DNA of 29,761 bases. It comes from a virus (lineage: Duplodnaviria > Heunggongvirae > Uroviricota > Caudoviricetes). This document shows, one piece after another, positions 6,001 through 15,000 of the stretch. Each line of letters starts with the position of its first letter. The stretch's first letter is position 1. Made by a program: the position numbers. The DNA lies in IMG/VR virus record IMGVR_UViG_2531839374_000020, one strand, 5' to 3'.

Positions 6001-9000
6001 CGCCATCACGCTGAACGGCATTTTTTGCCTTATCCACCGTGGGTTTTAATCCGAGGTTTTCAACAGCCTCATCCCTGTCTTCCACATCCGAAAGGTTATT
6101 TTTTATCAGCAATGCCTCTTCGTTAATTGCACCGCCCACCAGCAATAATATAGCCTTATATAGCTGGTCGTGTTCTTCTTTATTCAGTTCTATCCCGGCC
6201 TTCTCAATGACACCACAGATTTCCTCCTGAATGGCATTCCACATGGCACTGTTCAGCCAGGTAGCAAGACGTCCTGTGCGAAGATTTCCGTCAGTAAATC
6301 CGTTCTTACCCGGACCAAACTTATCTTTTACCGCAGTCAGCGTATCAATCCTGTGCATCTTCATCCTCATCTGGATAGGAAAATAAAACGACGGTGTGTG
6401 ACGGACATAATTTATTAATCACGCACTCCGCAACCGTATCCCCCCACGTCCGGATCGGTGTGTTGCAGGCGTCCGTGCATGTCTGCCACTGAGCACCGGC
6501 ATCCACCGGCAACGTCACACGCCAGAAATAACGCCAGCGATCTCCCCATTCCGGATCGGGGCTTGCATCCAGGTGCTGGAACTGTTCGATCGTTACGCCG
6601 GTATATCCCAGCGCCTCAAGCTGATCCAGGAAGAACTGCTCATTTATGCCACCAGCCACATTGGCTTTTGCTTCAAGACGTTGCTGACGCTGGCGTAATG
6701 TCTGGGTTCCGACAGGGGAACAGGAATCAGGTAAACCATACAATTCTTCATAACGTTCAATCAGCTCTGTGGACTGACCGGGATCGATTTCAATCACCAG
6801 TTCATCAGCCCGCTGGTGAACACGCACAAGCGATGGTGCCAGACCGTCAAGTACACCGTCGGTATCTGACCATGCAGGCCCCGGCTGCATCAGTCCGTAC
6901 AGCAGCTTTGTATAATCATCCTGTAACGAATCCATTATTTACTCCTTGCCGGGTCATAAGCCTGCCAGGTGATCTCGCCGAGCACCGGAAGCTCGGTCTC
7001 CCCCAGGTCAATATCCGATGAAGGGACGATTAACCGGTGGGCCACTTCACCAGCAGACAAACTGATGGCCTCACTGATTCTGGACAGATACATACGCCCC
7101 TCTGGCACACTGAGGTAGCCTGAGTTTAACGGACACTCCTTCCTGAAATAGAATGGCATCAGAAGGAGCTAATAATGAGCAGAAAAACCAACGTTACTCT
7201 AAAGAGTTCAAAGCCGAAACTGTCAGAACGGTTCTTGAAAATCAACTTTCGATCAGTGAAGGCGCTTCCCGATTATCCCTTCCTGAAGGCACTTTAGGAC
7301 AATGGGTTACCGCCGCCAGAAAAGGGCTCGGTACTCCTGGTTCCCGCACGGTGGCTGAACTGGAATCTGAAATTCTGCAACTGCGTAAGGCGTTAAATGA
7401 AGCTCGCCTTGAGCGAGATATATTAAAAAAAGCAACAGCGTATTTCGCACAGGAGTCGCTGAAAAATACGCGTTAATCGAACAATGGCGACAACAATTTC
7501 CCATTGAAGCGATGTGTCAGGTATTTGGTGTATCCAGGAGCGGTTATTACAACTGGGTACAGCATGAACCCTCAGACAGAAAACAAAGTGATGAGCGGCT
7601 AAAACTGGAGATTAAGGTGGCACATATCCGCACTCGCGAAACATATGGAATCCGGCGGCTCCAGACGGAGCTGGCAGAGAATGGCATCATCGTTGGTCGT
7701 GACCGACTGGCACGTCTTCGTAAGGAGCTAAGGCTACGCTGTAAGCAGAAACGCAAGTTCAGAGCGACTACGAACCCGAACCACAATCTGCCAGTTGCGC
7801 CAAATCTGCTGAACCAGACGTTCGCTCCTACAGCACCAAATCAGGTCTGGGTGGCGGACCTGACGTATGTTGCCACACAGGAGGGATGGTTGTACCTCGC
7901 TGGCATCAAAGATGTTTATACGTGCGAAATTGTCGGCTACGCCATGGGAGAGCGCATGACAAAAGAGCTGACAGGTAAAGCCCTGTTTATGGCGCTCAGG
8001 AGCCAGCGCCCACTTGCCGGGCTAATCCACCACTCTGATCGAGGTTCACAGTACTGCGCATACGATTACCGGGTCATACAGGAGCAGTCTGGTCTGAAAA
8101 CATCAATGTCGCGTAAAGGTCACTGTTACGACAACGCTCCGATGGAAAGCTTCTGGGGAACGCTGAAAAATGAGAGCCTGAGCCACTATCGTTTTAATAA
8201 CCGGGATGAAGCCATCTCAGTAATACGGGAATACATTGAGATTTTCTACAATCGTCAGCGTCGTCACTCTCGTCTGGGGAATATCTCCCCGGCAGCCTTC
8301 AGGGAAAAATATCATCAGATGGCTGCTTAAAAAAAGAACAAATGGTAGTGTCCGCTATTGCCAGTACACCTCACTGAGCCGGAGATTCCGGATCAACGGC
8401 AATGCTGACCACCGTCTCTTCCTGTGGTGGATTCTGTTGCTGGTGGGCGTGAGGCAGCAGCGCAAGATTTTTTGTGCGCTGCTTCAGTATGCTGGTGGCG
8501 GTCTGCTCTCCCGGCACGATGTCGCTTTCACGGTACATTGAGCGGATTTTTTCCGCACGCAACCCCAGCGAACGACGTAATACTGCTTCCGGTAGCGCGT
8601 CCGCCACCTGATTGCGGACCGCCCACCAGGATAATTCAGCCAGAGATAATTCACGCTCCTGCGTACCGCTTATTGCGTGACCGATGACGTCAATCATCCA
8701 TGCTGACAGGTTTTGATGAGCAAGTTGCTCGAGTGATTCGGATGTCTGGTCACGCAACTGGTTGTCGCAGTGCCAGCACAACACCATTGCGCCGGTACCA
8801 TAACGGTGAATGACGGTTTCGCTGTGATGATAATCGCCGTGTGGCCACTGGCAGGATTTAATATGGCGCAACAGCCAGTCAGACAATGCACCAGCACCAC
8901 CAGCAGCACGAATCACCCGTGCGTTACTGAAAAACGGCAGCAATGTTTTGTCTTCCACTAGCGGCTGGCGAACGGCAGGAACGACCCCGGACGGCAGATT

Positions 9001-12000: not shown

Positions 12001-15000
12001 TCGCGCCCACTCTGGCGTACGAGTTCAAGAACCTGCCCTTTAATTTTTTCCCGCTCTTCTTGTGTAAAAACTTTTGCCACAAGCCCTCCTGAAAATTACC
12101 TCATGACCAGAAATTAACACTTACCCCCTGAAGCCCGGCGGAATTTCGTTATCCGGTTCAGAAATATGATTCACACAACGCTGGTTGTTCGTGCCGCTTA
12201 CCGGGAGCAACCAGGGGTTCTCAAAATTCCGGTCCGGTCCAAAAAACGTCGTCGCTCGCTGAACAAATTCCGTTCCCGTTTTCCCGGTAGCCGCCAGGTA
12301 TCTTGCGTAACGCCTCACGCCATCCAGCATGGCCTCTGGTGGCACCCCCTCGCGTAATCTGGCCTTCCAGGCACTGAAAGCGGATTTCTTCGGGTTTGCC
12401 CCGGCACGCAACGGGTACTCCCGCCAGACCTGTTCGAACACATCCGGATAATCCACTCGTCCCACAGACTGCCCGGTGTTTTCCGGGACTACCCGATCGG
12501 CTTCCCGCTGAATGGCGGAATCGGCTTCAGGCTGCTGCAGTTGGTGTGATTGCTCCGGACTTGCGGTCATCGCCTGCTGCACAGCGCCCGAATCGGCTTT
12601 CAGCGCATACGCTGAATCGGCTTCCGGTGTCGTGCCTGCTGGCTGACCAGGATTGACGGTCTGAACATCCCCTGCCTGGTTCGTGGCGTTTTTTACGCCA
12701 TGGACCATAGTGTTTTGATCTTCTTGATCTGTATCTTTATCTGTATCTTTATCTGTCGTGACTCGTCGTGACATGTGCGTGACATATCGTGACGCGCCGT
12801 GACAATCGCCATTTTGTTCCCGCTTTCTTTCCCTCTCTCGCTGCGCCCTCTTGCGCTCTGCAGGAGATTTTGCGGTTTGCGAAATATTGCCGTTGTCCTC
12901 TTTCAGCACCTGGCGTTTTTCCCATCCAGTGATTAAATCACCATCAAGTACCCGCCCCTGCATCGTCTGCAAAATTGAATCAATTACCTCTTCTGTCACG
13001 TCGAGCGCACTTGCCAAATCTTCTGTCGTGACATCAATGTGACCTCGCGTGACATTTCGTGACGCGCTCACCAGGAGGTGGATATACACTGCCATCACTG
13101 TTGCAATTGGCTGCCCTGACACCCTGGCAATTGTTCGCCACTTAGGGTCATTTGGCATGTCATGCCATAATCTGAGCCAGGCGTTAGCCATACTCACCTC
13201 TTTTGATACCGAATCTTTTTACTCACAAATTGCCGGAAGTGATCCGGTATGAATATTGCGAGTCAATGCACAGCCACAATATTTCCTGCAGGGCCACCAC
13301 GATTCATCTGGTTGAAACCAGCGATCGCCACTGCGACAAAATCATCAGCGTCTCTCACCAGTCGTTCCCGCGTCTCCACTAGTTCCCGAAAATAGGCTGA
13401 GCTATGGCTGCGCATTCGGGCCACCAGCAGAGGTGGCATTGCTTTTTCGATAGCTGGTAACAACGCCTGAATTTTTTTAAGCGCATCAGGGGTGTCTTTC
13501 TCCACCCAGCGGAAAATTTTCTGAGTATTGCGAGCCAGGGCTTCCGGATGGCTGTCGTCATACAGTTCCGGGAACGTCATTCCCAGCTCGAAATACGCTT
13601 TGGTAATTTTCGCAGCCGGTACTTTTTCGCCGTCCGGATGCGCCCAGGCATTCATCGCCATGCGGATGTGTTCATGCTTGATTTTCATGAATCAACTCCC
13701 ATCAGCTTTTTCGTAGTAGTTTTATTCCTGCCAATAGTTAAAATTGCATCGGCAGAAAATAATCCGTTTGATGGGTAATGACTCCAACTTACTGATAGTG
13801 TTTTATGTTCAGATAATGCCCGATGACCTTGTCATGCAGCTCCACCGATTTTGAGAACGACAGTGACTTCCGTCCCAGCCTTGCCAGATGTTGTCTCAGA
13901 TTCAGATTATGTCGCTCAATGCGCTGAGTGTAACGCTTGCTGATAACGTGCAGCTTTCCCTTCAGGCGTGATTCATACAGCGGCCAGCCATCCGTCATCC
14001 ATACCACGACCTCAAAGGCCGACAGCAGGCTCAGAAGACGCTCCAGTGTGGCCAGAGTGCGTTCACCGAAGACGTGCGCCACAACCGTCCTCCGTATCCT
14101 GTCATACGCGTAAAACAGCCAGCGCTGACGTGATTTAGCACCGACGTAGCCCCACTGTTCGTCCATTTCAGCGCAGACAATCACATCACTGCCCGGTTGT
14201 ATGCGCGAGGTTACCGACTGCGGCCTGAGTTTTTTAAGTGACGTAAAACCGTGTTGAGGCCAACGCCCATAATGCGTGCACTGGCGCGACATCCGACGCC
14301 ATTCATGGCCATATCAATGATTTTCTGGTGCGTACCGGGCTGAGAGGCGGTGTAAGTGAACTGTAGTTGCCATGTTTTACGGCAATGAGAGCAGAGATAG
14401 CGCTGATGTCCGGCAGTGCTTTTGCCGTTACGCACCACGCCTTCAGTAGCGGAGCAGGAAGGACATCTGATGGAAATGGAAGCCACGCAAGCACCTTAAA
14501 ATCACCATCATACACTAAATCAGTAAGTTGGCAGCATTACCCTGCAACCGCTATGAAAAAGGCGGGAAAGATGGCATCACAATGACATTTATCGGCCCTT
14601 CCCCCTCTGTTCAGGACAAATCAGCCAGCACTGATAATACCAACATCAACGGCGAAGACATGACTGAGATTGAGGAGAGCATGCTTCTACCTGTCTCCGG
14701 TCAGGAACTGCCCATTCGTTGGCTTGCTCAACACGGCAGCGAAAAACCAGTAACGCACGTTTCACGCGACGAACTCCAGGCATTACACATTGCACGGGCT
14801 GAAGAACTACCGGCTGTTACTGCCCTGGCTATTTCGCATAAAACCAGTCTGCTCGACTCGCTGGAGATTCGCGACCTCCACAAACTGGTTCGTGACACTG
14901 ACAAAGTTTTCCCTAATCCTGGTAATTCAGACCTGGGACTAATAACTGCTTTTTTCGAAGCATACTTGGACGCTGACTACACTGATCGGGGCCTGCTGAC

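Follow-up and report, generated by a model that had tools for sequence, protein, structure and literature searches.

We analysed a 29,761-nucleotide stretch of Caudoviricetes DNA (IMG/VR record IMGVR_UViG_2531839374_000020; hereafter, the window) that contains two insertion sequences (ISs), an IS600 and an IS1. A first-pass annotation of this sequence had proposed that both ISs mark deletions that removed the immunity and late regions of a prophage. Gene content was taken from a listing of open reading frames (ORFs) and from Pfam scans. The window holds what is left of a lambdoid prophage that carries ipaH and has a contractile-tail module of the Mu type. The prophage is integrated at a tRNA-Ser gene adjoining mtfA, and the host is a Shigella-type Escherichia genome.

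From left to right, the window begins with a methyltransferase gene and ipaH, which encodes leucine-rich repeat (LRR) and NEL domains. A tail-fibre/baseplate block follows, with a tail fibre N-terminal domain, a tail-fibre assembly gene, a Mu Gp48-like gene, and a 176-nt fragment of baseplate J. Next in order are IS600 (7111-8373), a truncated DUF968/YdfU gene, hokD, Ead/Ea22, DUF4406, DUF977, a replisome organiser, and ydaT. After ydaT come IS1 (13774-14541), a 5'-truncated exonuclease gene, DUF4224, a tyrosine integrase gene, tRNA-Ser(CGA), mtfA, and tRNA-Asn. (Beyond tRNA-Asn, the inverse-autotransporter gene yeeJ is split by an IS629/IS1203-like element, and a fragment of another lambdoid prophage begins at 27282.) The prophage lacks a repressor, a complete cro-like gene, Q, and genes for lysis, terminase, portal, and capsid. 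The first-pass annotation had reported no repressor or cro and no lysis, terminase, portal, or capsid genes, which is correct for this prophage, but 29 codons of a cro-like gene remain and the other remnant includes a portal fragment.

IS600 and the missing late region

IS600 (7111..8373, plus strand, 1263 bp) is an intact member of the IS3 family. Its orfA and orfB match HTH_Tnp_1 and rve in Pfam, and the element is 99% identical to RefSeq-annotated IS600 copies. Its ends (TGAGGTAGCC... and ...ACACCTCA) run from TG to CA, with imperfect terminal inverted repeats that we confirmed by alignment. With the ends of the element checked, the 3-bp flanks are CAC and CTG, as had been noted; they differ at 2 of 3 positions, and there is no target-site duplication. 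On the left, positions 6935..7110 (minus strand) hold the last 176 nt (about 58 codons) of a 1083-nt gene for baseplate protein J/gp47. (In sister loci, this ORF is listed with the Pfam domain Baseplate_J_C.) On the right, positions 8374..9129 (minus strand) hold the first 252 of the 352 codons of a DUF968/YdfU gene (Pfam DUF968), and the stop codon of this truncated gene comes from the IS600 terminus. These 3' and 5' fragments are the unrelated, truncated genes that IS600 had been said to part.

A near-complete version of the same prophage is present in E. coli FDAARGOS_944 (NZ_CP065613.1, 622.5-666.3 kb; our loci L001/L002). It lies at the same tRNA-Ser/mtfA site, carries the same methyltransferase-ipaH cargo, and gives the closest view available of how the element looked before the deletions in Shigella. 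(In this genome, ipaHe is annotated as frameshifted, and two ISEc60 insertions lie in the portal and tail sheath genes.) Window positions 1-7110 are 99.35% identical to FDAARGOS_944, and the alignment ends on the last base before IS600. Positions 8373-12716 are 99.26% identical to it, and this alignment begins on the first base after IS600 (8373/8374). The first-pass annotation had suggested comparison with an intact related prophage, and in FDAARGOS_944 the IS600 flanks are indeed apart, by 23,127 bp. This distance includes the two ISEc60 copies (1,297 bp each), which leaves about 20.5 kb of phage DNA.

The DNA that is missing at IS600 begins with the last 100 codons of DUF968, rusA, Q, four tRNAs, and genes for a holin, a lysozyme, an Rz-like protein, and an HNH protein. 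It continues with the head genes (small and large terminase, portal, prohead protease, major capsid, and the connector and closure proteins). The tail part comprises the tail terminator, sheath, tube, tape measure, and baseplate genes, up to the first 302 codons of baseplate J.

The same joint is found in other genomes. Public assemblies contain the exact 252-aa DUF968 product in 87 blocks, and 10 of the 10 loci shown with it are from Shigella-type genomes, including CP000036.1 (which we take to be S. boydii Sb227). Wherever a Shigella-type locus covers the region, it has the 30-mers of both IS600 junctions, with one exception, which has only the left junction and is rearranged to metG. Because both junctions are present in every covering locus but that rearranged one, we conclude that the IS600 joint is old and shared. 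Among complete E. coli genomes, a search with IS600 and both flanks found neither junction in any of them. The only two matches at 80% coverage or more (H26 and H27) are in two pieces with about 950 bp of extra DNA, and we set them aside as a different insertion. In two scans of the GTDB species representatives, the junction 30-mers had no match; Shigella-type genomes are evidently not among these representatives.

IS1 and its nested states in sister genomes

IS1 (13774..14541, minus strand, 768 bp) is also intact. InsA and InsB are both present, encoded by insA-insB on the minus strand (Pfam Zn_ribbon_InsA, HTH_Tnp_IS1, and DDE_Tnp_IS1), and the element is 99-100% identical to RefSeq-annotated IS1 copies. 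Its ends are GGTAATGACTCC... and ...GGCAGCATTACC, with aligned inverted repeats GGTAATG(A/C).... The 9-bp flanks, CGTTTGATG and CTGCAACCG, have almost no positions in common; as the first-pass annotation had found, there is no target-site duplication.

This IS1 had been placed between a truncated ydaT-like gene and a truncated exonuclease gene. The exonuclease gene is indeed truncated at its 5' end, but the ydaT-like gene (13263..13688, minus strand; Pfam YdaT_toxin) is complete. Its 141-aa product is as long as in relatives, and 793 blocks contain exactly this protein. What is cut on this side is a cro/YdaS-like helix-turn-helix (HTH) gene, whose last 29 codons (13685..13773, minus strand) form the left flank of IS1. 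Here the match to APEC O1 runs to the last base before IS1 and ends at locus position 10057, which is within an HTH gene at 9969-10223. (The left flank is 97.6% identical to APEC O1; the locus match is at 99.5-99.7%, to APEC O1 and to many other E. coli prophages.) On the right, the exonuclease gene (14542..16738, plus strand), which encodes a RecE-like N-terminal part and a 3'-5' exoribonuclease domain, has lost its first 245 nt. Pfam's Exonuc_VIII matches only from profile position 81, and the alignment to FDAARGOS_944 starts exactly at 14542, which is nt 246 of its 2442-nt exonuclease gene. IS1 together with both flanks had 0 matches among complete E. coli genomes.

Overall, homology to relatives breaks at 7110/7111, 8373/8374, 13773/13774, and 14541/14542. 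Between these flanks, relatives hold the late region (at IS600) and the immunity and early-left regions (at IS1). Both IS copies are deletion joints. The Rac-type immunity set of the window is incomplete, with only ydaT, the end of the cro-like gene, and the replication genes left. The full set, with divergent HTH repressor and cro-like genes, ydaT, and the replisome organiser, is present in APEC O1, Sb227, and our loci L019/L023.

We asked if the two ISs could instead be simple insertions, with decayed duplications, into a phage of mosaic gene order that never held the "missing" genes. Lambdoid early regions are mosaic, and window positions 12717-13261 are unmatched in FDAARGOS_944. But the joints cut four genes (baseplate J, DUF968, cro-like, and exonuclease) in the middle of their ORFs, and the flanks are unlike each other at both elements, as described above. 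Also, sister genomes with the same IS1 still hold segments of 981 bp and 205 bp that are absent from the window. Finally, we built synthetic 600-bp joints, free of the IS, from each pair of flanks and compared them to 5,426 complete E. coli genomes. Contiguous flanks without the IS, which the first-pass annotation had named as evidence to the contrary, were found in 0 of the 5,426 genomes for either IS, and each half of a joint alone matches thousands of times. We therefore rejected simple insertion with decayed duplications, to which we give practically no chance.

Simple insertions at this locus do leave duplications. In Sb227-type genomes, a second IS1 has a perfect 9-bp duplication, TCAGGCGGC, on both sides; in the window this target site (10816..10824) is empty. 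The IS629/IS1203-like element in yeeJ (25321..26629, minus strand) has the target-site duplication GAAG, and its flanks are contiguous in the reference. (Its matches are annotated as IS1203 family. Its orfB appears to be split into overlapping ORFs at 25530-26252 and 25363-25827, and this copy may be defective.) And in three sister genomes (CP026866.1, CP026867.1, and CP026872.1; our loci L004, L010, and L011), a second IS600 lies in the integrase gene with a 3-bp overlap at window positions 17354-17356. These three genomes have other changes as well: the DNA that separates the two IS600 copies is inverted, there is an IS66-family insertion after window position 10779, and an IS1 lies in the integrase gene with a 9-bp overlap (17587-17595).

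Sister Shigella genomes contain the IS1 of the window, in the same orientation, in three nested states, none with a target-site duplication. In state A (CP026766.1), the left flank is in a ydfA-like gene downstream of a cI-like repressor gene (...TCGATCTTG) and the right flank begins at nt 42 of the exonuclease gene (CAAAAAATG...). In state B (Sb227 and at least 10 other loci), the left flank is as in A, and the right flank begins at nt 246 of the exonuclease gene, with 205 bp more gone. In state C (the window, AMGB01000051.1, ERR048277, and SRR4897063), the right flank is as in B, and the left flank is in the cro-like gene, with 981 bp more gone. (AMGB01000051.1, which we reached through a rare 107-aa variant of the DUF4406 protein, is 100% identical to the window over 12,324 bp; the evidence from ERR048277 and SRR4897063 is Logan contigs. 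Exact look-ups of two other products of the window, the 718-aa truncated exonuclease and the 358-aa replisome organiser, had no recorded match.) The 981 bp that are gone in state C comprise codons 1-55 of the cro-like gene, a 79-bp divergent spacer, the entire gene for a 139-aa cI-like protein (HTH_3), and about 300 bp beyond it. Both the 981-bp and the 205-bp segments are colinear with intact relatives.

State A is itself already short of 1,590 bp relative to FDAARGOS_944 (ydfA-ydfC, dicB, a DUF1482 gene, and the start of the exonuclease gene), or of 2,154 bp relative to L019/L023 (DUF1391/ydfA, a Phage_ASH/pRha gene, and YdaE). The total loss at IS1 is about 2.8-3.3 kb, and the sizes of the deletions are estimates because the reference is related rather than ancestral and the early region is mosaic. 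State B shares the IS1-exonuclease junction of C, and state A shares the left junction of B; progenitors of this kind were found for IS1 only. From these nested states with shared junctions, we conclude that at least three deletion events were anchored on one IS1 and that they acted from both of its ends.

The immunity region was also affected in CP026840.1 (our locus L021). There, an independent deletion bounded by IS600 spans the equivalent of window positions 13773 to 17446. Lost with it are the cI-like gene and the exonuclease gene, along with the 5' end of the cro-like gene and the first ~446 nt of the integrase gene. The immunity region has therefore been lost a second time via a different IS.

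Could assembly have collapsed repeated IS copies and misjoined the flanks of different copies? IS1 and IS600 are high-copy repeats, and outside of the window the left junction of state C is seen only in draft or Logan contigs. But the IS600 joint and the IS1-exonuclease joint are identical in many finished chromosomes (CP000036.1, CP0267xx-CP0268xx, and the CP162xxx series). The state C IS1 is spanned by a 142-kb contig, AMGB01000051.1, which is 100% identical to the window, and in two independent sets of reads the contigs go from ydaT 27 bp into IS1 and not on into the cro-like gene. As the joints recur in finished chromosomes and in independent read sets, we rejected assembly collapse, which seems extremely improbable.

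Routes to the two joints

Edge deletions at IS600 and at IS1, stepwise in the case of IS1, are very likely the best explanation for the locus as a whole. For IS1, we think that the deletions were probably made by the transposase. In a first step, the DNA from ydfA through the first 41 nt of the exonuclease gene would have been lost (ydfABC, dicB, and neighbours). A second step would have removed 205 bp more of the exonuclease gene from one end of IS1. In the sublineage of the window, a third step would have removed 981 bp from the other end; these contained all of the cI-like repressor gene, the divergent promoter/operator spacer, and cro-like codons 1-55. As the mechanism we propose intramolecular replicative transposition, in which the target of the IS is a nearby site in its own molecule. 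The DNA lying between that site and the end of the IS would be released as a circle. The IS would stay in place, flanked by its original neighbour on one side and by new sequence on the other, and would have no duplication.

Adjacent deletion is a classical property of IS1. A classical example is a set of deletions in the gal operon that start at an IS1 end, reportedly described by Reif and Saedler in 1975. As in those deletions, the ones at this locus start exactly at the IS1 terminus, keep the IS, leave one flank unchanged, and lack a 9-bp duplication, and both ends of the IS are active. Unlike the gal deletions, which were selected in the laboratory, these events are deduced from natural sister genomes.

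A stepwise course is also known from the IS3 family. In the long-term evolution experiment with E. coli, adjacent deletions by IS150 often grew stepwise (PMC11708052). Our A-to-B-to-C series is similar in that there are no duplications and a resident IS was at the same position earlier. It differs in that the series is for IS1; for IS600, which is the IS3-family member of the window, we found no earlier stage.

Another way to leave an IS in the middle of a deletion without a duplication is break capture: a double-strand break that arises in the course of an unrelated deletion takes up a copy of the IS, and no transposase makes a staggered cut. This has been proposed for IS5 and IS481 (PMC11708052). 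But the nested IS1 states keep one junction at each step, which points to a resident IS and not to three fresh captures in one place. In particular, in the step from B to C the IS1 was in place before the deletion, contrary to what break capture requires. We consider break capture very unlikely.

The main competitor is RecA-dependent recombination between two direct copies of the same IS, each of which had once been inserted with its own duplication. This would leave one hybrid copy, with the left flank of one insertion and the right flank of the other. Copies of an IS without duplications can arise by adjacent deletion or by recombination between ISs (PMC11708052), and Shigella genomes hold hundreds of copies of IS1 and of IS600 (PMC7373316). 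Several observations weigh against our preference for transposase-made deletions. First, recombination would give the same end product that we see, with no duplication and base-exact joints. Second, exchange between IS600 copies is proven at this very locus by the inversion in CP026866.1, CP026867.1, and CP026872.1. Third, the scar would look the same if a second IS1 had landed close by in the same orientation and had then recombined with the resident copy; since the IS1 copies here are 99.9-100% identical, a hybrid would go unnoticed. Fourth, an intermediate for IS600 was not found when we looked up the Gp48 protein and the truncated DUF968 protein; all of the contexts already carry the joint. 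Fifth, the order from A to B to C is read from nestedness and not from a phylogeny or a time-ordered record. Finally, the prophage of FDAARGOS_944 is a relative and not the ancestor, and the early region is mosaic: besides the interval at 12717-13261 that has no match there, ydaT is only 85% identical.

On the other side, the two-copy intermediate that recombination requires was not seen among about 40 loci. For IS1, recombination would need three extra insertions, each oriented like the resident copy and within 0.2-2 kb of it; for one of them the distance would be just 205 bp. The sole second IS1 that we did see nearby (in Sb227) is in the inverted orientation and is missing from the lineage of the window. 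Overall, we regard recombination as a possible but rather unlikely explanation.

For IS600 by itself, the balance is different. The joint could be an adjacent deletion of the IS3-family type, or it could have arisen by homologous recombination between two directly repeated IS600 copies, and we consider recombination to be about as likely as adjacent deletion. That the transposase made this deletion, rather than an exchange between two IS600 copies, is a tentative reading to which we would give slightly less than an even chance. The first-pass annotation had explained both joints by IS-mediated adjacent deletions instead of simple insertions. The deletions stand, with a stepwise course at IS1, but at IS600 adjacent deletion is one of two mechanisms that are about equally likely.

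Other IS3-family elements have been linked to deletions of this kind. According to a brief account in PMC9397093 of work by Kusumoto (2011), the protein IEE promotes the deletion of DNA that flanks IS3-family elements in STEC, the E. coli that make Shiga toxin. The window does not contain iee. In E. coli O157, IS629 and other IS3-family elements are said to have eroded prophages (Ooka, 2009). The O157 case resembles ours in that an IS3-family element borders a deletion within a prophage and that the prophage is immobilised as a result.

The remaining prophage and its decay in Shigella

The right end of the prophage is marked by its attachment-site tRNA, tRNA-Ser (CGA; 18064..18153, minus strand; identified by ARAGORN), which is followed by mtfA and tRNA-Asn. 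The layout of tRNA-Ser and mtfA is the same in FDAARGOS_944 and in APEC O1. The tyrosine integrase gene (17000..18036, plus strand) is frameshifted and is split into ORFs, with Phage_integrase (Pfam) on the second one. Alignment to the 346-aa integrase of FDAARGOS_944 places the frameshift near 17271, where a run of seven A is shortened to six. (The integrase of APEC O1 is annotated as frameshifted at the same site.) Because of the deletions at IS600 and IS1 and the frameshift in the integrase, this prophage can no longer repress, excise, lyse, or package. That it is immobilised had been predicted from the deletions, and the integrase frameshift reinforces the prediction.

The prediction that cargo had been retained was partly right. 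The toxin gene hokD (9577..9732, minus strand; Pfam HOK_GEF) is intact, and its translation is identical to the annotated HokD of FDAARGOS_944. But ipaH (915..2559, plus strand), whose product would be an E3 ligase with LRR and NEL domains, has LRR_TTSS and NEL (Pfam) on two different ORFs. Relative to the intact 547-aa gene of Sb227, alignment shows a +1 insertion (an A) at 1329, which yields ORFs of 144 and 421 aa. Because the site is outside of any homopolymer, the insertion may be a genuine mutation that turned ipaH into a pseudogene and not an error of sequencing. Unless the base at 1329 is an error, the cargo is only partly retained.

We noticed two repeats in the early region, which is 93-95% identical to inducible lambdoid E. 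coli phages. In the DUF4406 gene, the stretch at 11382-11423 consists of 2.3 tandem copies of an 18-bp unit (CCAGTTTCTCCGCCAGCG). This tandem repeat accounts for the 107-aa product, as compared to 101 aa in most relatives. In the replisome-organiser gene, the motif CGTGAC(A/G) is clustered at 12755-12804 and at 13027-13064, with a spacing of about 10-11 bp. (There are 20 matches to this motif in the window and 8 are expected.) By analogy to lambda O, these clusters look like origin iterons.

The other prophage remnant, at 27282-29761, begins with the last ~590 nt of a portal gene. This is followed by genes for a head-tail connector, head closure, an HK97 gp10-like protein, and gp17 tail completion, and by major tail genes. 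The remnant is 99.3% identical to several E. coli prophages. Homology to yeeJ stops near 27280 and the portal fragment directly adjoins it (27280/27281). This is a second joint, and one that has no IS.

The relatives of the prophage share gene families and gene order with the K-12 prophages Rac (racR-ydaS-ydaT) and Qin (hokD, relBE, ydfABC, and dicB). The shared order is cI-like, cro/YdaS-like, YdaT, and the replisome organiser, with hokD and DUF968/YdfU later; on the other side are ydfABC, dicB, and the exonuclease gene. Unlike Rac and Qin, this prophage has the ipaH and methyltransferase cargo, a Mu-like tail module, the tRNA-Ser/mtfA site, and decay that is bounded by ISs.

In Rac-type regions, loss of the repressor alone is lethal (racR is essential in K-12): the operon of cro/YdaS and YdaT is derepressed. 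If so, then because losing only the repressor kills, only deletions that take the repressor, the promoter, and the cro-like gene together would survive. The 981-bp deletion at IS1 does take the repressor, its promoter, and the 5' part of the cro-like gene together, as expected if selection were at work, and the IS600-bounded deletion in CP026840.1 can be offered as a second instance. Still, we think it unlikely that the erosion was shaped by selection rather than being neutral decay. If it was, then Shigella lineages would repeatedly and convergently strip the immunity module with whichever IS is at hand, and the nested IS1 states could be used as lineage markers.

IS-driven decay of prophages is well known in Shigella, and we see no departure from known patterns and no new element or mechanism. 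IS1 and IS600 are among five ISs that have expanded in all Shigella, and they are blamed for pseudogenes, rearrangements, and deletions, but it is hard to attribute past deletions to ISs (Hawkey et al. 2020, PMC7373316). In contrast to the setting of that study, the intermediates described here tie deletion directly to an IS at one locus. The window is a clean example that shows, at the resolution of single bases, how ISs take apart a Shigella prophage that carries a virulence gene and leave it immobile. It could serve as a teaching case, as a guide to annotating the locus (its pseudogenes and prophage boundaries), and possibly as a lineage marker. In the natural intermediates, deletion can be followed step by step from both ends of one IS1.

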